This document shows positions 44,570-64,000 of a DNA stretch of 64,000 bases, piece after piece. The stretch is from a virus (lineage: Duplodnaviria; Caudoviricetes). Under the pieces are notes generated by a model. The model was not told where the DNA came from. It made no database searches and worked only from the letters and a program-made list of their open reading frames with translations. Within the stretch, counting starts at the first letter, position 1. Each line of letters begins with the position of its first letter. A program made the translations under genes and the position numbers. The DNA lies in IMG/VR virus record IMGVR_UViG_2690315754_000004, positions 1,612 to 65,611 of that record; one strand, written 5' to 3'.

Positions 44570-44638
44570 GGCCAAAACCCCATTTTTAGGCAAAAAAAAG
44601 TATAACAATATCATGGTGATAAATATTAATGAAATCAA

Positions 44639-44661
44639 GGTGTAAAATTCTATTTTACACC
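44639..44661. promoter_or_regulatory. Palindrome GTGTAAA-N7-TTTACAC, copy 1
   Basis: GGTGTAAAAT-TCT-ATTTTACACC. Confidence 0.55.
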
Positions 44662-44712
44662 CTTTTTGTAACACAGATAAACACAGATAAAAGTAGGCAT
44701 AGATATAAGATT

Positions 44713-44734
44713 TGTTGACCAAATGTTGACCAAA
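44713..44734 (+). repeat. Arm-type sites of element 2 (left)
   Basis: TGTTGACCAAA x2; matches 63967-63988. Confidence 0.75.
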
Positions 44735-44964
44735 AAGTGCATGGGATAAAATCCTATTAATAGACTGGACAGTTGACCATCGAATACCCAAAGAGCTGAT
44801 TTAACCCGTACGCACTATAAACAAAAGAAGGCCGGTCACTTGAATGTGATTGGCTCTTTTTTTTGATAACAGCTTGACATAATTAAATCAAAAATACTAA
44901 TCGATAGTCTGTCCATCAACAAATTTGGAATTTCGGTTCTCTATCTGAACCCATTGGAGACATC

Positions 44965-45495
44965 ATGGATTGTCCTAATTGCGGTTTAGCGAACTCTGAA
45001 TCAGCCCTTAGGTGTGATTGTGGATATGACTTTCAATCTGGCCAGATTGCAGAACCATATTTAAATAATCCAACAGAAAGACTGAATAGTATCGGTGGCT
45101 GGTTAATTTTACCAGCCGCTGGTTTAATTATTGGACCGATTATCACAGTCATTAAATTAATCCCGTTTCTAAAAATCTTGCCGGATGTAATCGGGGAAGA
45201 CATTGCTGTCCCCTTTGCGTTTATTTTAATACTGCTGCTTAGCGGCGTTATATTTATGATTTATACTGCAACTTTATTTTTTCGCAAAAAGAGAAAAACG
45301 CCTCGCATCTTTATCAATATGTTAATTTTCATTCTTTGTATAATTTTTATTGAATTGGCAATTCTATACATTATCGGAGATAAGTGGTCCTTAGCAGATT
45401 TTGGTCGAGACATGATTGGATCAATAATCGGAACTATAATTTGGATACGATATTTTCAGGTATCAAAACGCGTGAAGGCTACATTTATAAATTAA
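44965..45495 (+). CDS. Zn-ribbon plus DUF2569-like membrane protein
   Basis: CPNC...CDCG, IGGWLIL and WIRYF..SKRVKATF. Confidence 0.75.
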   Translation: MDCPNCGLANSESALRCDCGYDFQSGQIAEPYLNNPTERLNSIGGWLILPAAGLIIGPIITVIKLIPFLKILPDVIGEDIAVPFAFILILLLSGVIFMIYTATLFFRKKRKTPRIFINMLIFILCIIFIELAILYIIGDKWSLADFGRDMIGSIIGTIIWIRYFQVSKRVKATFIN

Positions 45496-45703
45496 ATATC
45501 AGGAATTAAAGATTTTGAATAATTTGGTTAAAAATTTTTCGAGGTTTAACTTTATAAAAGTCAATGATGCAAAAGAACAAACATAAGGGTGTAAAACTTT
45601 GTACAAAGTAGATTTAAATAGATATTAAATAAATATGTTATGGTTTATTTTTGTACAAGAATAGTGCAAGGACTTCTTTTATTGATTTTGGAGCCGGTGG
45701 GAT

Positions 45704-46669
45704 ATGGTGATTAAGAAGCAGAGTAAAAAGCCAAATACCAAAACGAACGAAGGGTCTGAGTTACTAAACGCCATAAAAAACTATCCAATAAAGGTTAAAA
45801 TATTAAATCGACAGCGCCTCGCATTATGGGTATCTATCTTTTCAGTCATTATTGCATTAGGATCTTTTATAGTAGTTATTTACAAGGAATTTCTTCAGAC
45901 GTATGATATTGCTGCGAATTACTCCCAGATCATCATGGCGAAATTGCCGGAGGGTAACAGGCAAAAAATAATAAAAGACCATTTTGTCAATATACTTCTT
46001 TTTGGAGATGACTCGGAGAAACAAAATGCTAGAAACAATATCAGATTAGAAGATTTGAAGCAGTTTCCTGATTTCTTTAAAGCGATTGAACGGAAGGACA
46101 AGGATAGATTAAACGAAATTTTTGAAAATATGAAGGTACAGAATTATAAACTGCCAGATGAAATTATAAAAAAATATATCGGATCTCAAGCTTTCTCGCC
46201 TACGTTTTGTATTCCCTTGGTCATTTCGAATAAAGGCAGCAAGTTCGCGCATATTTCTTTAATTTATTTAATTTCCCGCGATGCTAAAAATACAAAAAAA
46301 AGATGGCTATTCAAATGTATGACCGAAATGAATACGGAAAGTATAGTCCACCGAGAGAATACAACCGATGCTTCCAGGATTAGTGATATTTTCCCTGGAA
46401 CTTCGGTAGGACCTAAAGAAAGATTAAATATTTATCCCTATTTTTTTCCTATATGGGAATACGAGAACCAATCAATAGCCACTAATTCTATGGTGCCTGG
46501 TGAATATTTCATTCACCTTGAAGGATTAGGGCCAGATGGAGAACCAGTTTTCATCACAAAAACAGAAAAACTGGTTATTAAGGAAGAGAGCTTAGTCAAA
46601 ATGTTTAAGGGGACCGACATGGCGCAGTATATAGAGCACGATTCATTTATGAAGGAATTTATTAAATAA
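45704..46669 (+). CDS. Membrane-anchored hypothetical protein (AT-rich cargo)
   Basis: 321 open codons with one N-terminal TM. Confidence 0.75.
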   Translation: MVIKKQSKKPNTKTNEGSELLNAIKNYPIKVKILNRQRLALWVSIFSVIIALGSFIVVIYKEFLQTYDIAANYSQIIMAKLPEGNRQKIIKDHFVNILLFGDDSEKQNARNNIRLEDLKQFPDFFKAIERKDKDRLNEIFENMKVQNYKLPDEIIKKYIGSQAFSPTFCIPLVISNKGSKFAHISLIYLISRDAKNTKKRWLFKCMTEMNTESIVHRENTTDASRISDIFPGTSVGPKERLNIYPYFFPIWEYENQSIATNSMVPGEYFIHLEGLGPDGEPVFITKTEKLVIKEESLVKMFKGTDMAQYIEHDSFMKEFIK

Positions 46670-46740: not shown

Positions 46741-46745
46741 GTTTC

Positions 46746-47212: not shown

Positions 47213-47500
47213 ATGAATTTTATGGCTTTCAATCATGACGATGGCCTTTTTATAGCAACCGATTTTCGCAGTGCAGCATTAGAAGAGCGTGCCGAGGCCA
47301 TTCATGGCGCCATTGCCGAATTGCTTGCTGGCCAACGTGTCACCAGATTGACCATAGCGGGCAAGAGCATTGAATACGGCCAGGCCGACCTGGTAGCACT
47401 TCAAAAATTAGAGGCCGACACGCTCGCTGAACTGCGAAGATATCAGGGCTTGTATCCAAGCTATAAATGCTTGAGGGCTTCGACCAGCAAGGGTTTTTGA
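47213..47500 (+). CDS. gpW-like head completion protein
   Basis: LLAGQRVTRLTIAGKSIEY..ADL..L; upstream of the portal. Confidence 0.75.
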   Translation: MNFMAFNHDDGLFIATDFRSAALEERAEAIHGAIAELLAGQRVTRLTIAGKSIEYGQADLVALQKLEADTLAELRRYQGLYPSYKCLRASTSKGF

Positions 47501-47505
47501 TCAAT

Positions 47506-48984
47506 ATGGCCTACCTGAAAATTTTAGACCCACACGGCAACAGGATCAAAGCACAAAGCAGCACCTATGAGGCCGCAGGCTTCACCAGGCGCCTGAACCT
47601 GTGGGGCACTTCAACCCTGGGGCCTGACGCTTCGCTCTATGGCAGCCTGGCGACCCTTCGCGCGCGATCCCGTGAGCTTGTACGCAACGATCCTCTGGCC
47701 GGCGCCGGTCTTGACACCCTGGTGTCAAACCTGGTCGGCAGCGGCATATCGCCACGATGGCAGCTATCCGATGCCACATTGAAGGCACAGCTTCAACAGC
47801 TGTGGGCCGACTGGGCCATGCAGTGCGATCATGACGGCATCGCCGACTTTTACGGCATGCAGGCGCTTGCGGCACGCTCCATGATCGAATCAGGCGAAGT
47901 GCTCATTCGCTTCTTACCTCAGCGGCCGGGGCGCATGGCCGTGCCTCTTAAAATCCAGATAATCGAGGCCGACCACCTGGACGAAACCTACTCGACCACA
48001 CTGGACAACGGCCGAGAGATCCGTATGGGCATCGAGTTCGACGCATCCGGCCGGCGTGTTGCTTATCACCTGTTTAAAGACCATCCAGGCGAGGCTTTTA
48101 TAACGGCCGACACCGTGACCCGCGTTCGAATCCCGGCAAGCGAGATCCTTCACGTCTACCGGCCTTTACGACCCGGCCAGAAACGCGGCCGGCCGTGGTT
48201 ATCTGCCGTCATCACCACACTGCATGAGCTGAATAAATACCTCGATGCGGAGCAGGTGCGTAAGTCTTCGACGGCGATGTTCGGCGGATTCGTGACCGTA
48301 CCGCCTGAGGGCATCGACAGCGTTCCTGACATCCTGGGGCAGTCTGGCATAGACGCCACAGGGCAAGAGGTCTTGGCCCTTGAACCGGGCAGCTTTCCCA
48401 CATTACCGCCGGGCATGGACGTGAAATTTTCAGAACCCGCCGACGTAGGCGGCAGCTATGAGGCGTTCGTCAAACACATGGAACGGCGCATAGCGCGCGG
48501 CTTCGGCGGCCTGACCTATGAAAAATTGTCCGGCGATCTTTCCGGCGTGAACTACTCTTCGATCCGTGCCGGAAACCTGGAATTTCAACGCTTTTGCCTT
48601 CAAATCATCGGCAATGTGCTGGCCTTTCAACTCTGTCAGCCTGTGGCGCGCTACTGGATCGACCAGGCTGTGCTATCGGGCGCTGTCAAAATCATCGATT
48701 TTATCGAGCACCGTCAGCAGTATTACCGCATCAAGTGGTGCCCTGACGGCTGGCCCTGGGTAGATCCCGAAAAGGACCTGAAAGCCGAACAGATGGCCAT
48801 TCGCAGCGGCTTGAAATCCCGTGCCGAGGCAGTGGCCGAGCGAGGCCGCGACGTCGAAGAGGTTGACATGGAGCAGGCCGAAGACAATTGGCGCACCGAT
48901 GCCCTGGGCCTTTCCTATGACAGCGACGGCCGGCGCGCCAAGGATGCCGGCATCCCCACACAGGAACCGAGCAACAATGAATGA
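47506..48984 (+). CDS. Lambda-family portal protein
   Basis: LRARSRELVRNDP, RPGQKRG, GDLSGVNYSSIRAG and WVDPEKD. Confidence 0.95.
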   Translation: MAYLKILDPHGNRIKAQSSTYEAAGFTRRLNLWGTSTLGPDASLYGSLATLRARSRELVRNDPLAGAGLDTLVSNLVGSGISPRWQLSDATLKAQLQQLWADWAMQCDHDGIADFYGMQALAARSMIESGEVLIRFLPQRPGRMAVPLKIQIIEADHLDETYSTTLDNGREIRMGIEFDASGRRVAYHLFKDHPGEAFITADTVTRVRIPASEILHVYRPLRPGQKRGRPWLSAVITTLHELNKYLDAEQVRKSSTAMFGGFVTVPPEGIDSVPDILGQSGIDATGQEVLALEPGSFPTLPPGMDVKFSEPADVGGSYEAFVKHMERRIARGFGGLTYEKLSGDLSGVNYSSIRAGNLEFQRFCLQIIGNVLAFQLCQPVARYWIDQAVLSGAVKIIDFIEHRQQYYRIKWCPDGWPWVDPEKDLKAEQMAIRSGLKSRAEAVAERGRDVEEVDMEQAEDNWRTDALGLSYDSDGRRAKDAGIPTQEPSNNE

Positions 48985-50065
48985 TTTAATGATCGATCCG
49001 ATTTTTTTAGCTTCCCCATACCGCCAGGGCGCAGCATTGGAAAAATCTTTCACCACACATTCCAAAGCCCTGGCGGTCATATCCATCCATGGGCCGCTAT
49101 CGCACCGGGCGCAGGGGGGCTTCTTGTCGATGCTGTTCGGCGACACGGCCACATATGACCAGATCCGAGCGGCCTTTCAATCCGCCCTGGCCGACGATGC
49201 CGTGGGCGCTATCGTCTTTGACATCGACAGCGCCGGGGGCGAGGTGGCCGGGTGCTTCGATCTGGTGGATGAGATCTACCAGGCGCGCGGCACAAAGCCC
49301 ATCTACGCGATAGCCAATGAGGCCGCCTTATCGGCCGCCTACGCGATTGCGAGCGCAGCGGATAGAGTCTACCTGACCCGAACGGCTGCGGTCGGCAGCG
49401 TGGGCGTCATGGCGGTTCATGTGGATCAATCCGGCCTGGATGCAAAGACCGGCCTCAAGTATACCGCGATCCATGCCGGCAGTAAAAAGACCGACGGCAA
49501 CCCACACGAAGCCTTGAGCAAAGAGGCCGCCGACGCCATCCAGGCGCGCGTCAATGCCACCTATGATCTGTTTTGCGCCACCGTGGCCCGCAACCGTGGC
49601 CTTTCCGAGCAGACCGTCAAGGTAACAGAGGCGGCCATCTACACAGGCGCCGACGCAGTGGCGGCCGGCCTGGCCGATGCCGTCCAATCATATGAGCAGT
49701 TCATTCAAACCATCATCGAGGGTAACAACATGACTTTAAAAACCGATCTACGGGCACTTATCGCAGGCAAAAAGCCCGAAGAGATTGCCGAGGCCATGGC
49801 GGCCTGTGGCTTCATGCCGGCCGATCATAAGCCGGTCGAAGGCATTCTTGAACTGTGTGACATGATGGGCGTCTCCGACGTCGGCTTCATCAAGGCCGTG
49901 GTCAAAGACGGCCTGAACGTCGAGCAGGTCAAGGCGGCGATCCTTGCGGCCAGGGCCGAAAATTCAAAAACTATCTTTTCTACCGTCTCAGCGACCGGCA
50001 CAGGTGAAGTCAATCCCCTGCTTGCCGACGCCAAGCGCCGGGCCGGCATCAATGGAGGTGCATAA
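48977..50065 (+). CDS. S49 prohead protease/scaffold (lambda gpC-like)
   Basis: DIDSAGGEVAG, ALSAAYAIAS and GSVGV. Confidence 0.9.
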   Translation: MNDLMIDPIFLASPYRQGAALEKSFTTHSKALAVISIHGPLSHRAQGGFLSMLFGDTATYDQIRAAFQSALADDAVGAIVFDIDSAGGEVAGCFDLVDEIYQARGTKPIYAIANEAALSAAYAIASAADRVYLTRTAAVGSVGVMAVHVDQSGLDAKTGLKYTAIHAGSKKTDGNPHEALSKEAADAIQARVNATYDLFCATVARNRGLSEQTVKVTEAAIYTGADAVAAGLADAVQSYEQFIQTIIEGNNMTLKTDLRALIAGKKPEEIAEAMAACGFMPADHKPVEGILELCDMMGVSDVGFIKAVVKDGLNVEQVKAAILAARAENSKTIFSTVSATGTGEVNPLLADAKRRAGINGGA

Positions 50066-50067: not shown

Positions 50068-50442
50068 ATGGCCATTACCGAGGGCAACTACAATTCTGAT
50101 TGGTTGGCTTGGGAACAGGATAACGACTACAGCCGGAAAAAGGTCACCATCGCCGAGTCGCAGACCATCACCAAGGGCGAAGTGCTGGGCGTCGTGACCG
50201 CTTCCGGTCAATACGCGGCTTTCAACCAGGACGGCGATGACGGCACCGAGTCGGCCGCCGGCATCTCTTTGGGCGACTACGCCACAGCCGCAAGTGAAAC
50301 CGCCTCAGGCGTGGCCCTGGTGCGCGACGCCATCGTCATCGAAGACAATTTGACCTTTCCCAGTGATATTACTTCAGGCGAACAGGCCACTGCCATGGCC
50401 AGTCTTCTGGCCCTGGGCATCATCACGAAAACGGAGGCTTAA
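50068..50442 (+). CDS. Head decoration protein (gpD-like)
   Basis: YSRKKVTI, GEVLG and DGTESAAGI. Confidence 0.8.
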   Translation: MAITEGNYNSDWLAWEQDNDYSRKKVTIAESQTITKGEVLGVVTASGQYAAFNQDGDDGTESAAGISLGDYATAASETASGVALVRDAIVIEDNLTFPSDITSGEQATAMASLLALGIITKTEA

Positions 50443-50445: not shown

Positions 50446-51456
50446 ATGCTGAACCCATTTGAAACCAACGACGCCTTTTCCATGGTGTCTTTGACCAAGG
50501 CTATCAACCTGCTTCCGAACAACTACGGCCGCTTGAAGCAGATGAACCTCATGCCGGGCAAGGGCGTTCGGACCCGCTCCATTGTGGTCGAAGAGCGTGC
50601 CGGGGTGCTGACCCTGCTTCCCACACAGCCTGTGGGCGCGCCTGGCCTGCAAAACGCCATGGGCAAGCGAACCGTTCGAACCTTTGTCATCCCGCATATC
50701 CCGCTCGATGACACCATCTTGCCCGATGAGTACCAGGGCATCCGGGCCTTTGGCCAGGAAGACGGCACGGCCGCCTTGGCGCAAGTGGTCAATGATCACC
50801 TGCAAACCATGCGCAACAAGCACGCCATCACCTTGGAGCACCTTCGCATGGGCGCCTTGAAGGGCATCATCTACGATGCCGACGGCTCAACCGTGCTTTA
50901 CAATCTTTATACCGAGTTCGGCATTACGGCCAAAACCATTGACTTTGTGCTTGATAACTCTGCCACCAATGTGGGCGGCAAGTGCCGGGAGTCCGTGCGT
51001 CACATCGAGGACAACCTCAAGGGCGACGTGATGAGTGGCGTGCACTGCCTGTGTGACGAAAATTTCTTCGATGCGCTTGTCAGCCATGACAACGTGAAAG
51101 AAGCCTATATGTATCACTCAGAGGCTTCCCAACGCCTGGGCGAAGACAATCGAAAGGGTTTTCGCTTCAACGGCATCACCTTTGAAGAGTATCGCGCAAG
51201 CGCCACAGGCAGCGCCGGCAGCACCGTAGCATTTATTCCGGCCAATACGGGCTACATTTTTCCCGTGGGCGGGCAGAGCACCTTCGAAACGTTATTTGCC
51301 CCTGCCGACTTCACCGAGACGGCCAATACCCTTGGCCTTGAGCTGTACGCCAAACAGGAACCGCGCAAGTTCAACCGTGGCGTTGACCTTCACACGCAGA
51401 GCAACCCCTTGCCGATCTGCTACCGGCCGGGTGTGATTGTGACAGCGACCATCTAA
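50446..51456 (+). CDS. Major capsid protein E (lambda-like)
   Basis: FSMVSLTKAIN, TLEHLRMGALKG and QSNPLPIC.RP. Confidence 0.9.
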   Translation: MLNPFETNDAFSMVSLTKAINLLPNNYGRLKQMNLMPGKGVRTRSIVVEERAGVLTLLPTQPVGAPGLQNAMGKRTVRTFVIPHIPLDDTILPDEYQGIRAFGQEDGTAALAQVVNDHLQTMRNKHAITLEHLRMGALKGIIYDADGSTVLYNLYTEFGITAKTIDFVLDNSATNVGGKCRESVRHIEDNLKGDVMSGVHCLCDENFFDALVSHDNVKEAYMYHSEASQRLGEDNRKGFRFNGITFEEYRASATGSAGSTVAFIPANTGYIFPVGGQSTFETLFAPADFTETANTLGLELYAKQEPRKFNRGVDLHTQSNPLPICYRPGVIVTATI

Positions 51457-51770
51457 TGAACCTTGACGATGCCAAATCGGCCGCCCTGGCGGTCTGGTTC
51501 GATACCGGTATCGCCGAATCGATCACTTACAACGGTTCGGCAATACCGGGGCATATCTCTTATAGTGAACCGGGCAAGGCGGCCTATGCCAACCATGCCG
51601 TGCTTACCGTGAGGCGCAGCGACGTGCCGGCGCCGGCCTACCGCGACACGGTAGTCATCGACGGGGCGACGTGGCGAGTCTACCAGGATGACGGCCAGGC
51701 GCCGATCTGTGGCGGCGATGAACTGACGTGGGATATCCCCATCATGCGAGGGGAAAGGCGCGCCATATGA
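51456..51770 (+). CDS. Head-tail joining protein (gpFII-like)
   Basis: Follows the capsid gene; SDVPAP...DTVVIDG..W.V. Confidence 0.65.
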   Translation: MNLDDAKSAALAVWFDTGIAESITYNGSAIPGHISYSEPGKAAYANHAVLTVRRSDVPAPAYRDTVVIDGATWRVYQDDGQAPICGGDELTWDIPIMRGERRAI

Positions 51771-52234
51771 ATATCAACACACTACTTGGCAACCTGGCGA
51801 CAGCCATCAGCACCAACGCGGCACTTACCACATGGTGCAACACGACCTATGGCCATGCGCACAAGGTCTTTGTCAACCTGGATCACCGCAACCCGCCAGG
51901 TGACAGCGATTGCCCCTTTGTGACGCTCTATCCGATCAGCAAGAGCGCCGGCCTGGGGGTGAGCACCAAGCGCCACGCCTTCGAAGTGGATTGCTGCATT
52001 TATGACGACACCACACGCACCACCGGCCAGGTGCTCGAATACAATTCGATCCGGCGTGTCGAAGAGTTCAGGAAATTGATTGAATCGGCCATCATGGGCA
52101 TCGATACGGGCAACGCTCTGATTGAGACGGTCGAAATTGAGTACAGCGTGGTCGAGGCTTTCCCCTTTGCCTGGGCCGGCATGGTCATCGAAATAAACGA
52201 GCACTTCATTTTGGGGTCAGATCCCCTTGAATAA
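51767..52234 (+). CDS. Tail terminator-like protein
   Basis: Precedes the tube gene; homologous to 28177-28653. Confidence 0.6.
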   Translation: MNINTLLGNLATAISTNAALTTWCNTTYGHAHKVFVNLDHRNPPGDSDCPFVTLYPISKSAGLGVSTKRHAFEVDCCIYDDTTRTTGQVLEYNSIRRVEEFRKLIESAIMGIDTGNALIETVEIEYSVVEAFPFAWAGMVIEINEHFILGSDPLE

Positions 52235-56316: not shown

Positions 56317-56342
56317 AAAAACAAAATCCCTGCCTTTTTAAA

Positions 56343-56363
56343 GTGTAAAATCCCGCTTTACAC
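56343..56363. promoter_or_regulatory. Palindrome GTGTAAA-N7-TTTACAC, copy 2
   Basis: GTGTAAA-ATCCCGC-TTTACAC upstream of the regulator/replication operon. Confidence 0.55.
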
Positions 56364-56501
56364 ACTGAAATAATTTAAAAAAAATCAAAAAATGACCTTG
56401 TTCGAGGCCAAAAATTGAATTATATGGAATCCAGCTTAATGCAGTAAAGACCCAAAAGACAGGGTTTAACAAGATTAACAACCCACACATGGAGCATCAA
56501 A

Positions 56502-56924
56502 ATGAACCGAACATTTACCAACCGCGATCTTGCCTTCATTACCGGTAAAAGCATAGGCACCATTAGGGCCTTGCCATCGACCACACTGTGCTTGCCCAGT
56601 TATCCGCCAAGAGAGCCCGACTTCATTACTCGCTGGTCATTCGATGACCTGGTGGGGGTTTATCTCTTTTTCACAATTGTTCAAGGCGGCATTTCACGCG
56701 AATACGCAGGCGAGGCCATTAACGGCACGGATGTCATCAAAGCGTTTCAAATAGATAGCCCCCCTGATTTTGTAATATTTATTGAAAAAGATGGCGGCGA
56801 GTGGGCGCCAAGGGTAACTGCCGAAGGCATGGCCCTGCTTTCCAAATTTCAATATGCTCAAGCCAGGGTGTTCAATTTAAAGTACTACAAACAGGCATTC
56901 GAAGAGCGTATCGCCAAACTATAA
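56502..56924 (+). CDS. MerR-like HTH regulator candidate
   Basis: FTNRDLAFITGKSIGTIR...RWSFDDLV. Confidence 0.55.
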   Translation: MNRTFTNRDLAFITGKSIGTIRALPSTTLCLPSYPPREPDFITRWSFDDLVGVYLFFTIVQGGISREYAGEAINGTDVIKAFQIDSPPDFVIFIEKDGGEWAPRVTAEGMALLSKFQYAQARVFNLKYYKQAFEERIAKL

Positions 56925-56938
56925 TTAGAGGTGCAACA

Positions 56939-57190
56939 ATGAATATCCGACCAGAAAACCCTATAGATCACGCTTTAGCCGAAGCATTACTGATTTTTAT
57001 CCAGTCAACCGGTCCGACTGAATATCATCGATTAGCAGAAGTTCTATGTTGCAAATCATCGACAGCTAAAAGGATGACGGTCGATGAGTTGAAAAGGGCA
57101 CTCAATATCCTTGCGGCAAATGGCTTGATAAATCTCAAGCCACTAAGCAACGCGGGTATATTGATCGACGTTCAGCGGGGGGTGGCTTGA
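56939..57190 (+). CDS. Small wHTH-like hypothetical protein
   Basis: GAGGTG RBS; overlaps the primase start. Confidence 0.55.
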   Translation: MNIRPENPIDHALAEALLIFIQSTGPTEYHRLAEVLCCKSSTAKRMTVDELKRALNILAANGLINLKPLSNAGILIDVQRGVA

Positions 57191-59598
57191 TCGGTGAATT
57201 TTTTGCAACGTTCTTTAGCCACAAAGAGGAATGCCTCTATTTTCACCTGTGGCGAAGCCGTAGCAAAATATCCACATGGTTCACCGATCCGGCCGATGCA
57301 GCCGCATCGGTCAAGGCCGATGATACCAACGTATATTTCGGAATGGGGCTATCAAGAAAAGACCTTGGACCCCACAAGAGATTGACCGCTGACACCACAG
57401 CTGGGATAGTCGGCCTGGGCATCGATCTTGATATCGCCGGGCCGGGCCATCAGAAGAAAAACCTGCCACCTGATATCAATGCTGCCCGAAAGATTATCGA
57501 TGGGTTTCCTCTACGGCCTACCATGATCATTCATTCAGGACATGGCCTGCAAGCCTTCTGGATTTTTAAAGAGCCATGGATTTTTGAGTCTGAAAATGAA
57601 CGTGAACAGGCCCAAATCTTAGCGCGTCGGTTCAACGGCACCTTTCAAAAAAAGTACAACCTGAAATATGAAATCGACAGCACCTTCGACCTAAGTCGGG
57701 TTTATCGTGTGGCCGGCACGATCAACAGCAAGCCCGGATGCCCGGATGTAAGGGCAGAAATTGTCGAGGTCAACGACTACTATTATAATATAGATAGCTT
57801 CGAAGCATTTCTGCTTCCCATCGATCAGATCGAAAATAGGCCGTCCGGCAAAGCCGATTGCAAGCCTGTCACAATCGATCCGAATCAAGTGGTCGATCCC
57901 GGTTTGACCGAACTGCTTTCACAGGCTTCTGACAAATTCCAGGCGACTTGGAATCATCAACGTCCTGACCTACCATCGCCGAGCGAGTATGATCTTGCGC
58001 TTGCATCACAGGCGATTAATTGCGGCATCGACGAAGAGAATATTGGCCCGTTAATTCTTGCATTCAGGCGAAAGCATCATTTAGAGCCTCAAAAGGCGCT
58101 TCGTGTGGATTATATCCAGCGCACCATTGCCAGGGCAAAGCAGAGCATTGCCAACGGCCAGACATTAAAGAGCTATCCCCTGACCGATACCGGGTTAGCT
58201 GAACGCTTCGCAGAACAGTACCGCGATCAAGTGAGATACTGTCACACTATGGGCAAGTGGTTCATATGGAACGGCCGGCAATGGGCACCTGACAATGGTG
58301 GAAAAATAAAAAGCCTTGCAAAAAATGTTGTCAGAAAAATCTATGGTGAAGCACAATCGGAAAACGATCCTGACCAAAGAAAGAAAATCGTGCAATTTGC
58401 TGTGAAAAGTGAATCCAAAAGAGCACGAAATGACATGATCGATCTGGCGCAGAGTGAAGACGGGGTGCCGGTTCGGGCAGAAGAGCTTGACGCTAACCCG
58501 TGGCTGCTCAATTTGAAAAACGGTACGCTCAATTTAAAGACCGATGTGCTTCAATTACACAATCCGGGTGACATGATCACAAAAATGGCGCCCGTGGCCT
58601 ATGATCCGAGCGCCACAGCGCCGACCTGGATCAAGTATCTATCCGATGTGTTGGCGCCAGAAGATGCAGCTTTTGTTCAACGGGCGGCCGGATACAGCCT
58701 GACCGGGGACACTTCCGAGCAGTGCCTTTTCTTTCTTTATGGCGATGGAAGCAACGGCAAGAGCGTCTTTGTCAACACATTGCGCAAAATTTTGGGCGAT
58801 TTAGCTATCCAATCGGACTTTGGCGCATTTTTGGTCAAAAGAGGATCGAGCGTCCCAAATGACATTGCCAGATTGGCGGGCGCCCGAATGGTAATTGCCA
58901 ACGAACTGGCAGAGGGTGAGCAGTTGAACGAGGTGTTCGTAAAAACCGTCACCGGAAATGACACAATTGCAGCCAGGTTTCTGCATCAAGAATTTTTTGA
59001 ATTCGAACCGCTTTGTAAAATCCTGCTTGTCGGCAACCACCTGCCGAGAATCACCGGCACTGACCATGCAATCTGGCGACGCATCAAATTGGTCAATTTT
59101 CCGAACCGCATTGCCGACCACATGCAGGACAAGCGCCTTGAACAGAAGCTAAGCCGCGAATTGCCCGGCATATTGAATTGGGCGCTTGAGGGCTTGCGGC
59201 AGTGGCGGAAAAGCGGCCTGCAACCGCCTCAGAGCGTTCAGGTTAACACAGATCAGTATCGGGCTATCAGCGATTCGGTTCAGCTGTTCATCAATGAGCA
59301 GTGCGCCCTTAGCCAAGGGGCCTGGGTCGTAAAGGCCGACTTGTATGCAGCCTATTCAAAGTGGTGTCAGGACAGCGAGATTGAATGCCTATCTGATAAT
59401 TTGTTCAGCCGTAGGGTGAAAAATTGTGGTGTGTCCGATAGTCACTCGCGCGTCAATGGCACACCTAAACGAATTTGGACCGGAATAGAGCTTTCCGATG
59501 AAGATGGCAAAAATGCGTTAACAAAAACCAAATGCGTTAACAAATGCGTAACAGCGGAAGTTATTGAATTAAAATCAAAAATGACACAGTTCGACTGA
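57187..59598 (+). CDS. Primase (AEP/RepB-like)-D5 helicase fusion
   Basis: IDLD, HSGHGLQAFW, RVAGT.N.K, Walker A GDGSNGKS and AIWRRI. Confidence 0.9.
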   Translation: MIGEFFATFFSHKEECLYFHLWRSRSKISTWFTDPADAAASVKADDTNVYFGMGLSRKDLGPHKRLTADTTAGIVGLGIDLDIAGPGHQKKNLPPDINAARKIIDGFPLRPTMIIHSGHGLQAFWIFKEPWIFESENEREQAQILARRFNGTFQKKYNLKYEIDSTFDLSRVYRVAGTINSKPGCPDVRAEIVEVNDYYYNIDSFEAFLLPIDQIENRPSGKADCKPVTIDPNQVVDPGLTELLSQASDKFQATWNHQRPDLPSPSEYDLALASQAINCGIDEENIGPLILAFRRKHHLEPQKALRVDYIQRTIARAKQSIANGQTLKSYPLTDTGLAERFAEQYRDQVRYCHTMGKWFIWNGRQWAPDNGGKIKSLAKNVVRKIYGEAQSENDPDQRKKIVQFAVKSESKRARNDMIDLAQSEDGVPVRAEELDANPWLLNLKNGTLNLKTDVLQLHNPGDMITKMAPVAYDPSATAPTWIKYLSDVLAPEDAAFVQRAAGYSLTGDTSEQCLFFLYGDGSNGKSVFVNTLRKILGDLAIQSDFGAFLVKRGSSVPNDIARLAGARMVIANELAEGEQLNEVFVKTVTGNDTIAARFLHQEFFEFEPLCKILLVGNHLPRITGTDHAIWRRIKLVNFPNRIADHMQDKRLEQKLSRELPGILNWALEGLRQWRKSGLQPPQSVQVNTDQYRAISDSVQLFINEQCALSQGAWVVKADLYAAYSKWCQDSEIECLSDNLFSRRVKNCGVSDSHSRVNGTPKRIWTGIELSDEDGKNALTKTKCVNKCVTAEVIELKSKMTQFD

Positions 59599-59760
59599 TT
59601 TGTTACGCGTTACGCTTTTTTCGGAGTTTAGTCCTAGGAAAAAACATATGTAAAGGTAGTTTCAAAATATGCGTAACCGTTAACAAATTGAGATAACATA
59701 TTGAAAATTATAAAAATAAATGCGTAACACAATTAAAAAAATGCGTAACAATGCGTTAAC
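59511..59760. repeat. Iteron origin of element 2
   Basis: About 9 TGCGT(T)AAC/GTTACGC copies in both orientations in AT-rich DNA. Confidence 0.75.
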
Positions 59761-60000
59761 AGCCTGATAACACACTGAAAATAAATATAAAAACATAAAA
59801 ACGCGTGTTCTGTGGTAGGCACTGTGAAAGGCGGCAGTTGTGCACAAAAAGATACAGGGCCAAATAGAGCAAGTCCAGCAGATCGCCGAGCAACTTCTGT
59901 GGGTACAACGCCAGATCCCGAAGCGGTCACCTGCCCGGAAACGATCCGAAGCAGCTGTGTTCGAACTCGTTCAGCTGATGGCCGAATTAGAGCGCCAGTT

Positions 60001-60046
60001 GGGTCCTTCCGGGCCGAAGAGCTATCGAGGTCGCGCCCAGCCCGAT
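60001..60046 (+). other. cos-like packaging site
   Basis: GGGTCCTTCCGG (cosQ-like) then AGGTCGCGCCC, about 60-100 bp upstream of terS. Confidence 0.7.
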
Positions 60047-60101
60047 AGCCATCCAGGAATAGGGGCCAAAAACCTATAAAGATATCAGGAAGATAGCTAA
60101 T

Positions 60102-60575
60102 ATGAACGCAGCAAATTACGCAAAGCACCGCCAGGTGACCCCATCGCAGGTTACAGCATGGATCAAAAAGGGCCTGCTTGGCAACGCCTGCCAAAAAGTG
60201 GGCGCGCGCTACGTCATAGACCCTGTGGCAGCCGACGCGGCCTTAGAGGGCGGCCTGCATCCGTCATACGATCCAGGCGATACCGGTCCATCCTTCGCCG
60301 AGGCCAGGCGCCAAAAAGAGCACCACCTGGCAGAGCTTCGACGGCTGGAACTGGAAGAAAAAAAGGGCATGCTCGTGCCGGCCGCAGAGGTGCAGGGCCT
60401 GCTTGAAAAACTCATCATGCAGGCGCGCACCAGACTGCTTGGCATCAAGGCGCAGGTGGCCCCACTGGTGCATGAGGCCATCGCCGACGCGGCACAGCGT
60501 GAGCGCCTGCTTTTCACTGTGGAAGAGATCATCGAGGGAACTCTGAAAGATTTGAGCGATGCAAAAATTCAGTAG
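60102..60575 (+). CDS. terS: Terminase small subunit (Nu1-like)
   Basis: N-terminal HTH (YAKHRQVTPSQVTAWIKKG) and coiled coil ..KGMLVPA.EV. Confidence 0.8.
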   Translation: MNAANYAKHRQVTPSQVTAWIKKGLLGNACQKVGARYVIDPVAADAALEGGLHPSYDPGDTGPSFAEARRQKEHHLAELRRLELEEKKGMLVPAAEVQGLLEKLIMQARTRLLGIKAQVAPLVHEAIADAAQRERLLFTVEEIIEGTLKDLSDAKIQ

Positions 60576-62433
60576 TGCGGCCATCGATATATGGAACCAA
60601 GCCATCACCGCATGGCGGCCACCGCCTAAAATGACGCTCAGCCAGTGGGCCGACACGTACGCGTATCTATCCCCGGAATCGAGCGCAGAGGCCGGAAAAT
60701 GGCGCTCCTTGCCTTACCAGGCGGGCATTATGGATGCCATCACCGACCCCTGTGTGGAGCGCATCACCATCATGAAATCCGCTCGTGTGGGATACACAAA
60801 AATAATCAACCACACCATCGGCTATCACGTGCACCAGGACCCGGCACCGATCCTTGTGGTGCAACCGACCATCGAGGATGCCGAGGGGTATTCCAAAGAC
60901 GAAATCGCTCCAATGTTGCGCGATACGCCATGCCTGGCCGGCCTGGTGGCCGATGCCAGAACGCGCTACTCAAACAACACCATCCTGAAAAAATCTTTTC
61001 CAGGTGGCACGCTCATCATGGTGGGCGCCAACAGCCCGCGTGGTTTCCGGCGCATATCGGCACGCGTCGTGCTCTTCGATGAGACAGACGGTTACCCGCC
61101 AGGTGGCGCCGGCGCAGAGGGCGATCAGATCATGCTTGGCATCCGGCGCACTGAATATTTTTGGAATCGAAAAATCGTGCTTGGATCGACGCCAACCATC
61201 AGCGGTCTAAGTCGCATCGAGGACAGCTTCAACCAAAGCGATCAGCGGCGCTACTTTGTACCATGCCCGCACTGTGGCCACATGCAGGTGCTTAAGTGGC
61301 AACGCCTGACCTGGCCGAAGGGGCAACCCGAACAGGCGGCCTACCAGTGCGAGTCATGCGAAAAACTCATTGCACACAGTCACAAGCGATGGATGATTGA
61401 ACGCGGAGAATGGCGGGCGACAAAGCCCTTCAACGGCCATGCCGGTTTCCACATTTGGGCCGCGTACAGCTACAGCCCAAATGCCACCTGGGCCAAACTG
61501 GCCGAAGAGCGCGAATCCATCGGCAAAAATCGCGACAAGTTAAAGACCTTCATCAATACCGTGCTGGGTGAGTGCTGGGAGGATCGAGGCAGCCAACCCG
61601 CCTGGGAAAACCTACACACACGCTGCGAACCATATCCGTTCATGGAAGTGCCGGCCGGCGCCTACCTGCTTACCTGTGGCACCGATGTGCAACACGACCG
61701 CCTTGCCGTGGTCATTCGGGCCTGGGGCCGTGGCGAGGCGTCATACCTGGTGTTCTGGGGCGAGCTATACGGCGACACCTCACAGCCCGAAGTGTGGGGG
61801 CAGCTGGATCAATTATTAAATCGAAATTACCGACACGCATCGGGCGCCGATCTGCAAATAGTCAGTGCTGCTATCGACAGCGGCGACGGCAACCGAACGC
61901 AGGTGGTCTATAACTTTGTCCGAACGCGCGGGCCGCGATGTTTTGCGGTCAAGGGCCAGTCGCAACCGGGCAAGCCGATCATCGGCCGGCCGCATGCTGT
62001 GGACGTGAGTTATCGAGGCACCACCATCAAGGCCGGCGTGCAAGTCTGGCCTGTGGGCAGCGACACAGGCAAATCAACGATTTACTCCCGCCTGCAGCAG
62101 ACCAATGGGCAAGGCGTCTACCATTGGCCGATCGGCCTGGATGCCGACTACTTTCAACAGCTGACAGCCGAAAAACAGATCACAAAATATCACAAGGGCT
62201 ATCCGGTCCTTGAGTGGCAAAAAATCCGCAGCAAAAACGAGGCGCTCGACTGTGAGGTATACGCCTACGCGGCAGCGATCCGGGCGGGGCTTCAAAGGAT
62301 CAATTTTGAGCAATTAGAGCAACAGACCAGGGCCACAAAAACCACCACCACCAACACGGCACCATCGCGCCAGGCGCAGAGCACCAGATCTGCCCGGCCG
62401 GCAGTTTCTAGATCAAATTGGATGCAGAGGTAA
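60559..62433 (+). CDS. terL: Terminase large subunit, GpA family
   Basis: KSARVGYTK, LFDE.D.Y, GSTPT, GTDVQ.DR and NEALDC.VY. Confidence 0.95.
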   Translation: MQKFSSAAIDIWNQAITAWRPPPKMTLSQWADTYAYLSPESSAEAGKWRSLPYQAGIMDAITDPCVERITIMKSARVGYTKIINHTIGYHVHQDPAPILVVQPTIEDAEGYSKDEIAPMLRDTPCLAGLVADARTRYSNNTILKKSFPGGTLIMVGANSPRGFRRISARVVLFDETDGYPPGGAGAEGDQIMLGIRRTEYFWNRKIVLGSTPTISGLSRIEDSFNQSDQRRYFVPCPHCGHMQVLKWQRLTWPKGQPEQAAYQCESCEKLIAHSHKRWMIERGEWRATKPFNGHAGFHIWAAYSYSPNATWAKLAEERESIGKNRDKLKTFINTVLGECWEDRGSQPAWENLHTRCEPYPFMEVPAGAYLLTCGTDVQHDRLAVVIRAWGRGEASYLVFWGELYGDTSQPEVWGQLDQLLNRNYRHASGADLQIVSAAIDSGDGNRTQVVYNFVRTRGPRCFAVKGQSQPGKPIIGRPHAVDVSYRGTTIKAGVQVWPVGSDTGKSTIYSRLQQTNGQGVYHWPIGLDADYFQQLTAEKQITKYHKGYPVLEWQKIRSKNEALDCEVYAYAAAIRAGLQRINFEQLEQQTRATKTTTTNTAPSRQAQSTRSARPAVSRSNWMQR

Positions 62434-62437
62434 AATA

Positions 62438-62638
62438 ATGAAAGAAAGGCAGCAATATATACAGGTTTCGAAAGCTGCAAAAATGCTTGATTGCAGCGCC
62501 GAGTATGTCCACAAACTGATTGCAGACCGGCACCTGACAGCCATCAATGTTGGGGCTCGTATGACGCGCGTCAGTGTTGAGTCTCTAATGAATTTTATCA
62601 GGCGGTCAAGGGTCGATCCGGATAGCTATGCTCAGTGA
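62438..62638 (+). CDS. Excisionase-like HTH protein
   Basis: VSKAAKMLDCSAEYVHKLI...L.AI; upstream of int. Confidence 0.75.
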   Translation: MKERQQYIQVSKAAKMLDCSAEYVHKLIADRHLTAINVGARMTRVSVESLMNFIRRSRVDPDSYAQ

Positions 62639-62782
62639 TCAAAGATGCCAGGTATTGCCATAAACAATCAAATCGGGATACAAAGTGACACCCACAGGAT
62701 AGGGTCGCTCCCGAAAAGCCGGAAACCCTTTGCCGGCCTGCCTGTGGGCATATTCAAAGGGGCAGCCAAAAAGGGGGCTAAG

Positions 62783-64000
62783 ATGGCAATTTTACAAGAA
62801 TGTCCGGCCTGCAAGCGCAAACAATCCGTGAAAAAAAAGCGATGTGTTTCTTGTGGCCTGGAATTGGATGAGTTAAAAAAATCCCGACTGGTCAAATACT
62901 GGATTGATTTTAGATATCGCGATCCAAAGACCGGCAAGACCGTACAACGACGTGAGAGCGTCGAGGCCATGGAGGGGCTTCAAGGAAATTCCATTGCCGA
63001 TGCACGCACAGCCCTTGCAAAGCGGTCGGTTCAGAAAGCAGAAAACCGGGTGCTCGATATCCTGCCTGAACACAAACTCACATTTTCAGAACTGGCCGAT
63101 TGGTACTTGGCGTTAGAGTCTGTAAAAACACTAAAATCATACAAAACGGTAAAGGGATACATTAACAAATTCAAAGAGGCTTACGGGCAACGAATTGTGG
63201 CCGATATTTTACCGGCTGACCTTGAGGATTTGCAAGCCAAGCGCCTGGGGCAAAATTTAAAATTAAAAACCATTGACGATGAAATAAATTACGTCAAAAC
63301 GATGGTCATCAAGGGCTTCGATAACGGCAAGGTCGGGGGTGATGCCCTTCGCTCTTTCCGGCGCGTCAAAAAATTGTTAAAGGGTCATGCCAATGCTCGA
63401 GACAGATATTTGACCATCGATGAATTTGCCCGGCTTCTTGAGGCCAGTCCGAACCATCTTAAAAATATTTTGACGATCGGGTATTGGTCCGGTATGCGCA
63501 AAGGTGAAATTACGGCGTTGACCTGGGATAAAATCGATATGAAGGGCCGCATGATCCGGCTTGAGGCCGAAGACACCAAAGAGGGGAAGGCCAAGTCGAT
63601 CCCGATGGCAGAGGCCGTCTATCGGGTTATCCAGTCAATTCCAAGGTCTATTCACGATCCCCATGTGTTTCTCTATTACAGCAAGCCGATCACCAGGAAT
63701 TTTAGCCAGGGGCTTAAATCTGCCTGCAAAAATGCGGGCATTGCCTGGGGGCGTGACGTGAAAGGCGGCTTTATTTTCCATGATCTACGGCACACCTTCG
63801 TCACTGATATGAGGCGAGCAGGTGTTGACCGTACCGTTCGAATGGCGATCACCGGTCACGCCATCCACGATATGGATCAGCGGTATGATGTGGTCGAAGA
63901 GTCGGATAAACTGGAAGCGATCAGGCGGCTTGAAAAGTATCGTTCGAAGGTGGCCTGTTTAACGAATGTTGACCAAACGTTGACTAAATCGGGTTTTTAA
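62783..64000 (+). CDS. int: Tyrosine integrase (N-terminal Zn ribbon)
   Basis: GMRKGE (R), TKEG (K), FHDLRH, TGH and RY; TAA stop at 64000. Confidence 0.95.
   Translation: MAILQECPACKRKQSVKKKRCVSCGLELDELKKSRLVKYWIDFRYRDPKTGKTVQRRESVEAMEGLQGNSIADARTALAKRSVQKAENRVLDILPEHKLTFSELADWYLALESVKTLKSYKTVKGYINKFKEAYGQRIVADILPADLEDLQAKRLGQNLKLKTIDDEINYVKTMVIKGFDNGKVGGDALRSFRRVKKLLKGHANARDRYLTIDEFARLLEASPNHLKNILTIGYWSGMRKGEITALTWDKIDMKGRMIRLEAEDTKEGKAKSIPMAEAVYRVIQSIPRSIHDPHVFLYYSKPITRNFSQGLKSACKNAGIAWGRDVKGGFIFHDLRHTFVTDMRRAGVDRTVRMAITGHAIHDMDQRYDVVEESDKLEAIRRLEKYRSKVACLTNVDQTLTKSGF
63967..63988 (+). repeat. Arm-type sites of element 2 (right)
   Basis: TGTTGACCAAA-CGTTGACTAAA in the 3' end of int. Confidence 0.75.

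Follow-up and report, generated by a model that had tools for sequence, protein, structure and literature searches.

A 19.5-kb chromosomal element with its own head and tail shaft: possible phage satellite with a chimeric tail, or prophage missing one gene block

Described satellites and the element under study

The cf-PICIs make their own heads, and PMC10085698 describes for them an integrase, an AlpA/MerR-type regulator, a primase-replicase, terS, terL, portal, protease, major capsid protein and head-tail adaptors, together with a lack of holin/lysis genes, integration at tRNA genes and a small size (median 14 kb). In the same paper, AlpA and MerR are PICI/cfPICI regulator profiles of the SatelliteFinder definition, and tail profiles are "forbidden components" of the cf-PICI model. 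The Vibrio cholerae PLEs (PLE11, PLE1 and PLE4; PMC12987554) assemble chimeric tails to which they contribute tape measure, chaperone and hub; they are described there as having no capsid or tube genes, some of them as adding a baseplate hub, and as parasitising a lytic myovirus. The Mycolicibacterium EPIPs (PMC12822802, preprint) are reported to produce particles whose tail lengths differ from that of the helper.

We analysed a window of 64,000 nucleotides (IMG/VR record IMGVR_UViG_2690315754_000004, positions 1,612 to 65,611), which contains a sharply bounded, 19.5-kb virus-like element of a bacterial chromosome, here called element 2. Two main readings are considered for it: a novel type of phage parasite, or a prophage from which one gene block is missing. 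Set against cf-PICIs and PLEs by their descriptions, element 2 shares the cf-PICI features listed above, and its backbone, consisting of an AlpA-type gene, an int-alpA RNA, a MerR-like regulator and a D5 primase, is PICI/cf-PICI-like. It differs from cf-PICIs, which as described have no tail genes by definition, in its tube, chaperone-like and tape measure genes, in its greater length, and in its gene order, with alpA-int between terL and gpW and all genes on one strand. A satellite-encoded tape measure and chaperone are common to the PLEs, for which combination with helper tail parts has been demonstrated, whereas the same mechanism in element 2 would be a prediction from its genes; compared with PLEs, element 2 would contribute head, tube and tape measure itself, the tip alone being borrowed. 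EPIPs are likewise reported to have small genomes with a major capsid protein, adaptor, stopper, terS and tape measure, but differ in their length of 11 kb, serine integrase and occurrence in Actinobacteria, the tape measure being the only tail protein reported and no tube gene, terL or primase being listed. If real, element 2 would be a new form between cf-PICIs and chimeric-tail PLEs. The initial annotation had placed it one step beyond cf-PICIs, a statement that needs updating, as the PLE work of 2026 (PMC12987554) demonstrated both tape measures encoded by satellites and chimeric tails.

Boundaries, integration and replication genes

Element 2 begins at a 29-bp repeat in the window whose exact counterpart, at the 3′ end of tRNA-SeC and 28 bp beyond the window end, closes it on the other side; its edges are now sharper than first annotated. 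The 29-mer occurs once in the window with up to 3 mismatches allowed (0 expected), and the tRNA-SeC gene, at L002 2710-2807 on the minus strand, is intact beside the element. Because element 2 ends at attR and tRNA-SeC, the absent genes are not located past 64000, and an extension that would carry them is ruled out. The element has its own integration module of att sites, arm repeats, AlpA-type gene, int-alpA RNA and integrase; the 22-nt arm-repeat unit is present in three copies, all within element 2, on either side of the att core.

44541..44569, no strand: attL, 29-bp copy of the tRNA-SeC 3′ end; exact 29-mer common to L002 2707-2735
44639..44661, no strand: palindrome GGTGTAAAAT..ATTTTACACC, a hairpin in the scan; possibly an operator
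44713..44734, +: arm-type repeats TGTTGACCAAA x2, repeat family D5; unit again at 63956-63988
44965..45495, +: cargo, DUF2569 membrane protein with N-terminal zinc ribbon; Pfam DUF2569 E 1.9e-22
45704..46669, +: cargo, 321-aa protein; one N-terminal hydrophobic segment, helical domain, Ig-like beta sandwich
56502..56924, +: MerR-like HTH regulator, a lead only; Atlas features score 0.94, structure TM 0.77
56936..57190, +: small ORF of ~84 aa from translation, no family match; start probably within a listed 129-aa ORF
57187..59598, +: D5/P4-type primase-helicase; Pfam D5_N E 1.6e-36, DUF5906, Pox_D5; phrog_6088 E 1.3e-129
59538..60101, no strand: non-coding stretch with three 16-nt repeats, AAATGCGTAACA core, repeat family D16; possibly ori and/or cos
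62438..62638, +: AlpA/Xis-type HTH protein; Pfam HTH_17, 27.5 bits (cut-off 27)
62645..64000, +: tyrosine integrase; Pfam Phage_integrase E 8.8e-23, phrog_1 E 2.6e-54
62692..62761, +: int-alpA RNA motif, Rfam RF02996; 57.4 bits (gathering score 35.8) over the full model, 1-71
Window-equivalent 64028-64056, no strand: attR, inside tRNA-SeC just beyond the window; exact match to attL

The AlpA/Xis-type gene lies directly upstream of the int-alpA RNA motif, and the true start of the integrase is probably M47 at 62783, 3′ of this motif; the final codon of the window is the integrase stop. For the ORF at 56502, annotated initially as HTH, the Atlas look-alike search points to a MerR-like protein (the resembling clusters carry PF13411 MerR_1), and Pfam and PHROGs gave no match. 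Behind the earlier label of ori and cos stand the three 16-nt repeats. A palindrome similar to that at 44639-44661 is seen in the sequence at 56343-56363.

The ~20 genes are all co-oriented and intact, and none, including the five or six tail genes, is truncated relative to its family profile or homologues. The gene order, coordinates and unbroken single-strand layout given initially are confirmed. The GC content of element 2 is 0.35-0.62, compared to about 0.65 for the host; the early/integration backbone (0.45-0.49) forms a composition class of its own beside the virion genes (0.53-0.62).

Genes for a tail tip, receptor binding, lysis or a cI-type repressor were not recognised in element 2 with Pfam, PHROGs, PADLOC and fold search, in agreement with the initial annotation. 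This screen covered all plus-strand ORFs called genes, the 59-aa ORF at 46723 being compared with PHROGs and PADLOC only, and two minus-strand ORFs with PHROGs only. The DUF2569 protein has three hydrophobic segments, and its gene has a GC content of 0.35. The 321-aa ORF, the only sizeable one left without a role, has 65 relatives at E <= 0.001 and no match in Pfam, PHROGs or PADLOC; its model (pLDDT 90.3) shows a membrane-anchored helical domain and an Ig-like sandwich, with AlkC, ApaG, RhoGDI and similar among the Foldseek matches listed. No phage tail protein is among these matches, and it is not recognisable as a tip protein; nor does any other leftover ORF resemble one.

Head, tail shaft and relatives

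By Pfam and PHROGs, the head gene set is complete and lambda-type, and element 2 has its own terminase.

47213..47500, +: gpW-like head-tail adaptor; phrog_75, head-tail adaptor Ad1, E 1.9e-06
47467..48984, +: portal, lambda family; Pfam Phage_portal_2 E 1.8e-110, profile 2-352/354
48821..50065, +: S49 head protease, start probably downstream of the listed GTG; Pfam Peptidase_S49 E 8.1e-32
50068..50442, +: head decoration protein, gpD type; Pfam HDPD E 4.3e-31
50446..51456, +: major capsid protein, gpE type; Pfam Phage_cap_E E 8.1e-113, profile 1-328/329
51456..51770, +: FII-like head-tail attachment protein; Pfam Phage_attach E 5.3e-08
51728..52234, +: 168-aa conserved shaft-module protein; phrog_17431 (unknown function) E 3.8e-13
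52250..53197, +: tail tube protein; Pfam Phage_tube_2 E 1.6e-45, profile 1-266/266
53219..53807, +: two overlapping small ORFs (89 aa and 127 aa) at the tail assembly chaperone position
53792..54352, +: 186-aa protein directly upstream of the tape measure; weak phrog_222 match, E 9.4e-05
54349..56316, +: tape measure protein, 655 aa, full length; phrog_10574 E 2.8e-66, weak in Pfam
56317..56501, +: AT-rich 185-bp tail/early-gene junction; sequence, palindrome, promoter-like sites at 56357 and 56475
60102..60575, +: small terminase subunit; phrog_57 E 8.7e-21
60559..62433, +: large terminase subunit, gpA type; Pfam GpA_ATPase E 6.3e-90 and GpA_nuclease E 1.6e-91, both full length

In the relative L095, the ORF at the gpW-like position matches Pfam gpW. 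The head-proximal and middle parts of the tail are the element's own: tube, two chaperone-like ORFs, two conserved shaft ORFs and tape measure. The tube protein also matches PDB 8xan_B "Major tail structural protein" (E 1.3e-16). The 168-aa protein shares 20-24% identity with the same-position ORFs of two other prophages in this genome, elements 1 and 3; its position would fit a tail terminator, as annotated initially, or a completion protein, and its sole match is the function-unknown PHROG. The chaperone role of the 89-aa and 127-aa ORFs, which have no family match in Pfam or PHROGs, is suggested by their position, and ORFs at this position are kept in relatives (107 aa in element 1, 126 aa with 41% identity in L015, 98 aa in element 3). 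For the 186-aa protein, labelled neck before, the structure model is too poor to classify; the protein is collinear with four homologues until the last residues and may serve in tail completion. To its last residue, the tape measure aligns collinearly with its closest homologue, P0002 (49% identity, 100% coverage). As claimed at the outset, its stop at 56316 is followed by the 185-bp intergenic region and then by replication genes; the junction has no trace of a tail gene, and the GC content is 0.28 in 56300-56399 versus 0.49-0.68 immediately upstream.

Lambda-like temperate Phage_tube_2 siphoviruses (L015, L009, and elements 1 and 3) share the order from portal to tape measure. Identity of element 2 to L015 is 64% for gpE and 57% for terL, and to the L015/L009-type shafts 41-42% for the tube and 46-53% for the tape measure. 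These phages differ in that none shows alpA-int behind terL or a tape measure followed by replication genes, and L015 and L009 have four to six tail ORFs past the tape measure, including one of 1088-1451 aa. In all seven relatives with this shaft and sequence past the tape measure, a tail-size ORF abuts or overlaps the stop; one is gpJ-like, with matches in 1748 phage records, another resembles a tail protein or fibre, and L014 matches the tip proteins of element 1. Tip and lysis genes after the tape measure of close relatives had been named initially as evidence against a satellite; tail-size ORFs are found there, although head and shaft have distant relatives at best, with 41-64% amino-acid identity.

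Elements of the same synteny, which the initial annotation proposed to look for, were found in no collection: neither a tape measure followed by replication genes nor terL followed by alpA-int occurs at a second locus among 65 genomes from the family, a sample of 401 from the order, genome_contigs, a JGI metagenome scan and five IMG/VR scans (80 + 22 + 80 + 67 loci), where no loci were obtained when the primase or the 56502 ORF served as the only query. Likewise, alpA-int lies between terL and gpW in none of 26 terL loci of at least 9 kb. The order of primase, terS/terL and portal is ordinary in phages, as seen at 12 of 80 IMG/VR loci with related primases. Among 5.8 billion proteins, the nearest primase has 40% identity and the nearest tape measure 49-53%. 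L091, which holds the full-length tape measure most similar to that of element 2 (49% identity), is a small island that bears an integrase and in which neither a tube nor a tip gene was recognised.

Exactly three Phage_tube_2 genes are present in the genome, in elements 1, 2 and 3. Element 1 is a 46-kb prophage in tandem with element 2 at the same tRNA, with a homologous tail shaft and a full tail tip, and element 3 is a third prophage with such a shaft, 258 kb away. Beyond the tape measure, element 1 encodes tail proteins by PHROG, and element 3 has further co-directional ORFs (198-553 aa), read as ORFs only. No lysis gene was recognised among the tested ORFs of element 1. To these candidate helpers 1 and 3, the identity of element 2 is 38% and 33% for the tube and 26% and 36% for the tape measure, the last 47 residues of which fail to align with element 3. 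With shafts so divergent, tip compatibility with element 2 can only be presumed.

Helper dependence, deletion or a composite unit

From its genes, element 2 may well be a helper-dependent integrative element, functionally a phage satellite, a prediction to which we give close to an even chance; a satellite with a chimeric tail is, in the same tentative sense, how we read it. The PICI-like backbone and the resident candidate helpers speak for this reading, as do the sharp att boundaries, the untruncated genes, the exact junction behind the tape measure, the lack of recognised tip, lysis and cI-type genes, the precedents of PLEs and cf-PICIs, and the L091 island. The singleton architecture, the tail ORFs of all seven relatives, the divergence of its shaft proteins from their counterparts in elements 1 and 3, and the lack of a recognised lysis gene among the tested ORFs of element 1 speak against it. 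After excision and replication, such an element would package its own DNA from cos into its own heads, most likely as a dimer of the 19.5 kb if the head has the usual size for the capsid family. Its tube and tape measure would polymerise on a tail-tip complex from a phage that shares the tube family and is either co-resident or infecting, for which elements 1 and 3 are candidate donors in this genome, and the donor phage would also supply lysis. The MerR-like and AlpA-type regulators would keep element 2 silent until a helper is active.

A single deletion would give the same map, because the head/shaft relatives carry tail genes directly after the tape measure. Element 2 would then be a recent defective prophage that lost, in one event between tape measure and early promoter, its tail tip, fibres, lysis and immunity; the shaft genes would be functionless leftovers, whole only because the event is young, and any mobility would be accidental complementation. 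This is a serious possibility, at somewhat less than even chance. The continuation past the tape measure in the seven readable shaft relatives and in elements 1 and 3, the lack of a second example in any collection searched, and the ordinary primase-terminase-portal order are consistent with it, and exact att repeats with a composition far from that of the host fit a young element. However, a deletion would need two non-coding end points, and the left one would have to be placed only a few bases from the stop of the tape measure gene, where the relatives have no intergenic space; this clean junction is weak evidence against deletion because one could arise by chance among the many windows scanned. 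Moreover, an element without an immunity region should be derepressed, yet element 2 is intact with whole genes, and alpA-int sits away from the supposed deletion, in a placing that none of the 26 terL loci shares.

Readings other than satellite and deletion are improbable even taken together. A still smaller chance belongs to the case that element 2 is not helper-dependent as proposed, either through hidden tip and lysis genes or as part of a composite unit with element 1. Its two role-less membrane proteins would allow hidden functions, but the role-less coding space consists of five ORFs (176, 321, 59, 140 and about 84 aa), which is too little for a distal tail protein, hub and receptor-binding protein, and the listed fold matches of the 321-aa protein again weigh against it. 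In the composite version, elements 1 and 2 would be excised and expressed together, the former providing tips and the latter its intact gpA-type terminase. They are adjacent and have att cores in common, a third copy of which, with 1 mismatch in 22 nt, lies 1.7 kb outside the window on its left side, and the large terminase of element 1, split across two reading frames, could be defective, although the split may be an assembly error. Against a composite unit, the two elements have different integrases, arm repeats and head types and lie in opposite orientation, and their terminases are 28% identical over the ATPase domain.

Gene content and boundaries of element 2

The window corresponds to G000:C3:1102679-1166678, and the tip-less element studied here (element 2) carries ~20 ORFs between 44965 and 64000, all in one orientation and covering 90% of the DNA. 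Its head and packaging genes encode a lambda-family portal, an S49 protease, gpD, gpE, an FII-like protein, terS and a gpA-type terL in which both domains are complete, together with a gpW-like adaptor that matches phrog_75. A Phage_tube_2 tube and a full-length tape measure both lie within the att-bounded element (Pfam; PHROG), and the tube also matches the solved 'major tail structural protein' 8xan_B (PDB sequence search, E 1.3e-16). Two ORFs of 89 and 127 aa are putative tail assembly chaperones, judging from their position and conservation. The backbone consists of a D5-type primase-helicase (D5_N), an HTH_17 protein and a tyrosine integrase (Phage_integrase); the HTH_17 match of this AlpA-type gene is at the cut-off. 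Matches to profiles and homologues run over their full length, with no gene truncated or frameshifted, and the gene map proposed for 44570-64000 in the initial annotation is correct on these Pfam and PHROG matches. ORFs without an assigned role encode a DUF2569 membrane protein and proteins of 321, 59, 140 and ~84 aa. For the 140-aa ORF (56502), an Atlas search gave a lead to a MerR-like regulator, which might serve as a repressor. No defence family was found by PADLOC in seven ORFs.

The features that delimit and characterize the element outside its virion genes are as follows.
44541-44569: exact 29-bp repeat of the tRNA-SeC 3' end, a single copy in the window at <=3 mismatches
44965-46669: two cargo-like genes with a GC of 0.35, for a zinc-ribbon DUF2569 protein and a 321-aa protein that has a membrane anchor and an Ig-like domain
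62692-62761: int-alpA RNA motif (Rfam; 57.4 bits, gathering score 35.8), located after the HTH_17 gene and before the probable integrase start

The window ends with the stop codon of the integrase gene, and the tRNA-SeC begins 30 nt later on the minus strand. From the pair of 29-bp repeats and the integrase stop, it could be deduced that element 2 extends from 44541 to window-equivalent 64056 (~19.5 kb) and ends there. A continuation past 64000 carrying the missing genes, which the initial annotation had considered, is thus excluded, as attR lies in the tRNA-SeC just beyond the window end. The att repeats are identical (29/29), and arm-type repeats (TGTTGACCAAA) on either side of the att core were found in element 2 only. 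The predicted int-alpA motif marks an AlpA-type integration module, and M47 (62783) is the probable start of the integrase, listed as a 451-aa ORF. The Rfam scan of the element returned int-alpA only, with no P4-type immunity RNA. The broken genes and degraded att sites of a decayed cryptic prophage are absent from element 2; a very recent single deletion would leave the same picture. The GC of the backbone is 0.45-0.49, compared to 0.53-0.62 in the virion genes. This split does not discriminate between a satellite and a remnant because the arms of lambda differ likewise, the left being GC-rich and the right AT-rich.

Missing functions and the tape measure junction

The searched ORFs of element 2 (Pfam, PHROGs, PADLOC) gave no tail-tip, hub, fibre, receptor-binding, lysis or cI-type family, which bears out the lack of tip, lysis and cI genes claimed from the sequence. 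The predicted gene content includes neither the tip or receptor-binding protein nor the lysis cassette and repressor of an autonomous temperate siphovirus. The only membrane proteins are the DUF2569 protein and the 321-aa ORF (45704), the model of which (pLDDT 90.3) has a membrane-anchored helical domain and an Ig-like sandwich. In a Foldseek search with the 321-aa model, which had been suggested as a check for tip folds, the matches listed were AlkC, ApaG, RhoGDI and similar proteins, with no phage tail protein among them. This protein has 65 relatives at E <= 0.001. Both genes look like cargo, and the predicted proteins might have a role at the surface of the cell, such as exclusion. The 186-aa ORF (53792) gave a poor model (pLDDT 60.5) and no fold match at E <= 0.001, and PDB sequence searches with ORFs 51728, 53792 and 56502 and with two tail ORFs of the IMG/VR contig L015 were empty or at chance level (E > 0.05).

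Downstream of the tape measure stop (56316) lie 185 bp of non-coding, AT-rich sequence (28-39% GC) that contain a palindrome and promoter-like sites. A different arrangement is seen in the IMG/VR phage contigs that share the shaft, that is, the tube, chaperone-like ORFs, tape measure and head-proximal tail ORFs; L015 shares the head too (terL 57%, gpE 64%, tape measure 53%). All same-shaft loci that extend past the tape measure (7/7; L009-L012, L014-L016) have a co-directional ORF adjoining or overlapping its stop codon, and large tail ORFs come after it. Among these ORFs, a 1339-aa protein of L009 is gpJ-like, one of L015 (1088 aa) resembles tail or fibre proteins, and the ORFs of L014 match the tip proteins of element 1, the 46-kb prophage next to element 2; the post-tape-measure ORFs of L011, L012, L014, L016 and element 3, a third prophage of this genome, were judged by size, position and BLAST only. 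Tip and lysis genes after the tape measure of close relatives had been named in the initial annotation as a sign of a simple deletion remnant; the seven loci, with tail-size ORFs at this place, are distant relatives (41-64% amino-acid identity).

On its predicted proteins, element 2 is a mosaic without close kin. Among 5.8 billion proteins, the nearest tape measures are 49% (full length) and 53% (75% coverage) identical and the nearest primase 40%, and the nearest relatives overall, at 41-64% amino-acid identity, are saturated for dN/dS. Relatives of the head genes mostly have other tails. Related primases stand just before terL and portal in 12/80 IMG/VR loci, which are ordinary phage contigs. 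The terL relatives in IMG/VR run directly into the portal, with an integrase after terL in 0/26 loci of at least 9 kb. On a MAG contig (L095; terL 57%, portal 60%), the gap between terL and gpW (2343-6869) holds a weak AlpA-like ORF and an AAA-ATPase/S8 subtilase pair, possibly defence cargo, suggesting that this gap is a cargo hotspot in the lineage, as in elements 1 and 2.

The search for the same synteny (tape measure followed by primase, terL followed by xis-int) yielded no second locus, and no tape measure followed by replication genes was present in any collection searched. Tape measure queries covered the family, the order, genome contigs, IMG/VR (alignment A1) and JGI metagenomes (alignment A2), giving 50 pattern matches and no relatives in genome contigs and two loci in JGI metagenomes. 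The other queries were the primase (alignment A5 in IMG/VR; family), the capsid (IMG/VR) and terL (genome contigs, IMG/VR). Used as single queries in IMG/VR, the primase and ORF 56502 found no loci.

Candidate helpers and the status of element 2

A third copy of the att core, with one mismatch in 22 nt, lies at G000:C3:1100970-1100991, 1.7 kb left of the window, indicating that the 46 kb between it and 44541 form a separate element, element 1, in tandem at the tRNA-SeC. Element 1 has its own integrase adjoining the left att copy, a protease-capsid fusion, a Phage_tube_2 tube of 315 aa and a tape measure. Behind the tape measure come a 735-aa 'tail assembly protein', a hub in which BR0599 and gp84_N domains are present and a tail protein of 742 aa (phrog_1101, 6.7e-263), a predicted full set of tail-tip proteins. 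No lysis genes were recognised in the tested parts of element 1. Its gpA-type terminase lies in two reading frames (window 36135-38016, minus strand): residues 16-400 of the element 3 terL align in frame -3, and residues 379-612 in frame -1. Either a frameshift or an error in the assembly explains the split; a genuine one might prevent packaging by element 1. Element 3 (G000:C3:1409500-1430000, L089/L090) shares the module of tube, chaperone and tape measure, after which come co-directional ORFs of 198, 207, 531 and 553 aa. The genome contains exactly three Phage_tube_2 genes, one in each element.

Identity of tubes and tape measures among the three elements
Tube: element 2 vs 1, 38%; element 2 vs 3, 33%; element 1 vs 3, 46%
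Tape measure: element 2 vs 1, 26%; element 2 vs 3, 36% (48% over residues 231-608); element 1 vs 3, 40%

Within this genome, the tape measure nearest to that of element 2 is the one in element 3. At 26-38% identity, compatibility of the element 2 shaft with these local helpers is doubtful. A gpJ query of the L009 type had no match in the genome, which as a single query shows little. A separate low-GC island (L284, G000:C3:592700-607000; GC 0.30-0.52) carries an integrase and two D5-type primase/helicase genes, one of them 41% identical to the helicase part of the element 2 primase; none of the virion proteins of element 1 or 2 has a match in this island.

Several known satellites resemble element 2 in part. 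Capsid-forming PICIs (cf-PICIs; PMC10085698) carry an integrase, a regulator of the AlpA, MerR or Stl type and a primase-replicase, plus terS, terL, portal, protease and capsid genes of their own and a head-tail adaptor or connector, and element 2 has genes of every one of these kinds. They have no holin or lysis genes, and none was found in the searched ORFs of element 2, although an unrecognised holin might be present. They also lack tail genes, which are forbidden components in the SatelliteFinder cf-PICI model, whereas element 2 carries a tube and a tape measure. Element 2 has every positive cf-PICI marker and would work like a cf-PICI, its tail genes placing it outside the class. PLEs (PMC12987554) form chimeric tails in which the satellite's tape measure, chaperone and hub replace those of the phage, with no PLE capsid or tube; in element 2, the full-length tape measure and the putative chaperones would have to combine with helper tail parts in a similar way. 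EPIPs are reported with a capsid protein and tape measure and no other tail proteins (PMC12822802), and MulchRoom and MiniFlayer encode heads (PMC10690885). A literature search found no satellite described with both tube and tape measure.

These data fit both a helper-dependent element with a chimeric tail and a prophage that lost its tip and lysis genes in a single deletion, and do not tell the two apart. The former is our tentative preference, held with somewhat less than even confidence. It is favoured by the exact boundaries with all genes whole, the exact join at the tape measure stop, a place where a spacer is lacking in relatives, a backbone of PICI type that forms a composition class of its own and the stable integration of an element without lysis and immunity genes. 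Further arguments for it are two resident phages that share the tube family and have tail-size ORFs after their tape measures (PHROG tail proteins in element 1; by size, position and BLAST in element 3) and the published precedents of cf-PICIs and PLE chimeric tails. The single-deletion remnant is a serious possibility, short of probable: every related shaft continues into tail genes, one deletion accounts for the map, the architecture is a singleton so far, and a clean junction can arise by chance among the very many windows scanned. An explanation outside these two is unlikely. The satellite interpretation in the initial annotation is partly supported: the boundaries, whole genes and missing tip and lysis functions stand, whereas a second locus was lacking and the relatives have tail genes after the tape measure.

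As a helper-dependent element with a chimeric tail, element 2 would supply the head, tube, chaperones, tape measure and head-proximal tail parts, and a helper of the same tube family would supply the tail-tip/adsorption device and lysis. The 19.5-kb genome would be packaged as a dimer; lambda-type terminases skip a cos site in an underfilled head. That element 2 is the first satellite to build its own capsid and tail shaft, borrow only the tip/adsorption device and lysis from a same-tube-family helper and package its genome in this way is a serious possibility, somewhat less likely than not. A working satellite of this kind would stand between cf-PICIs, which make their own heads and take whole tails, and autonomous phages, filling a gap, and host range, set by the tip, could be borrowed separately from tail length and head-tail fit. 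The chimeric-tail principle, shown in 2026 for PLEs of a myovirus (PMC12987554), would then extend to siphovirus tails and a capsid-forming element. Such elements would be filed as prophages and be invisible to current satellite finders because models of the SatelliteFinder type forbid tail genes (PMC10085698). A deletion remnant would be ordinary, yet a natural test case for complementation of a tip-less prophage by its neighbours.

Environmental traces and other small tape-measure islands

Two marine-sediment metagenome runs from one study contain 5-7% of the sampled element words, and no RNA run was listed as containing them. At 80% likeness, they gave only contigs of ~150-570 nt over head, tail and primase genes, some identical to element 2 and some 3-14% different. 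No piece among those shown spans an att site or the junction of the tape measure with the early genes, and the pieces say nothing on excision, linkage or habitat of the element. A long 'joint' from 1583 to 15301 in the sediment reads was discarded, one side being only 21 nt.

Many tape-measure relatives are on Logan contigs of 17-19 kb (P0003, on 19,107 nt; P0013, P0017, P0028). The closest full-length relative (P0002, 49%) is in a ~10-kb island (L091 5950-15900) of a 195-kb JGI metagenome contig, between dnaX and two tRNA-Ser genes, which it shares with an integrase, a RovC-like regulator and small ORFs, and a protease-like gene comes next to it on the downstream side. No tube, capsid or tip gene was recognisable in this island, which may be another tape-measure-bearing satellite, or a remnant. 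Many more-distant relatives are in alphaproteobacterial predicted proviruses of about 15-21 kb (L037-L088). Gene content was read in one of these UViGs, the 17.2-kb L078 from IMG/VR, in which a single contig combines a gene for an RcGTA-like capsid, a terL that immediately precedes the tape measure and an integrase. Together with the L091 island, this indicates that element 2 is not the only small integrative element to have a tape measure and no tip.
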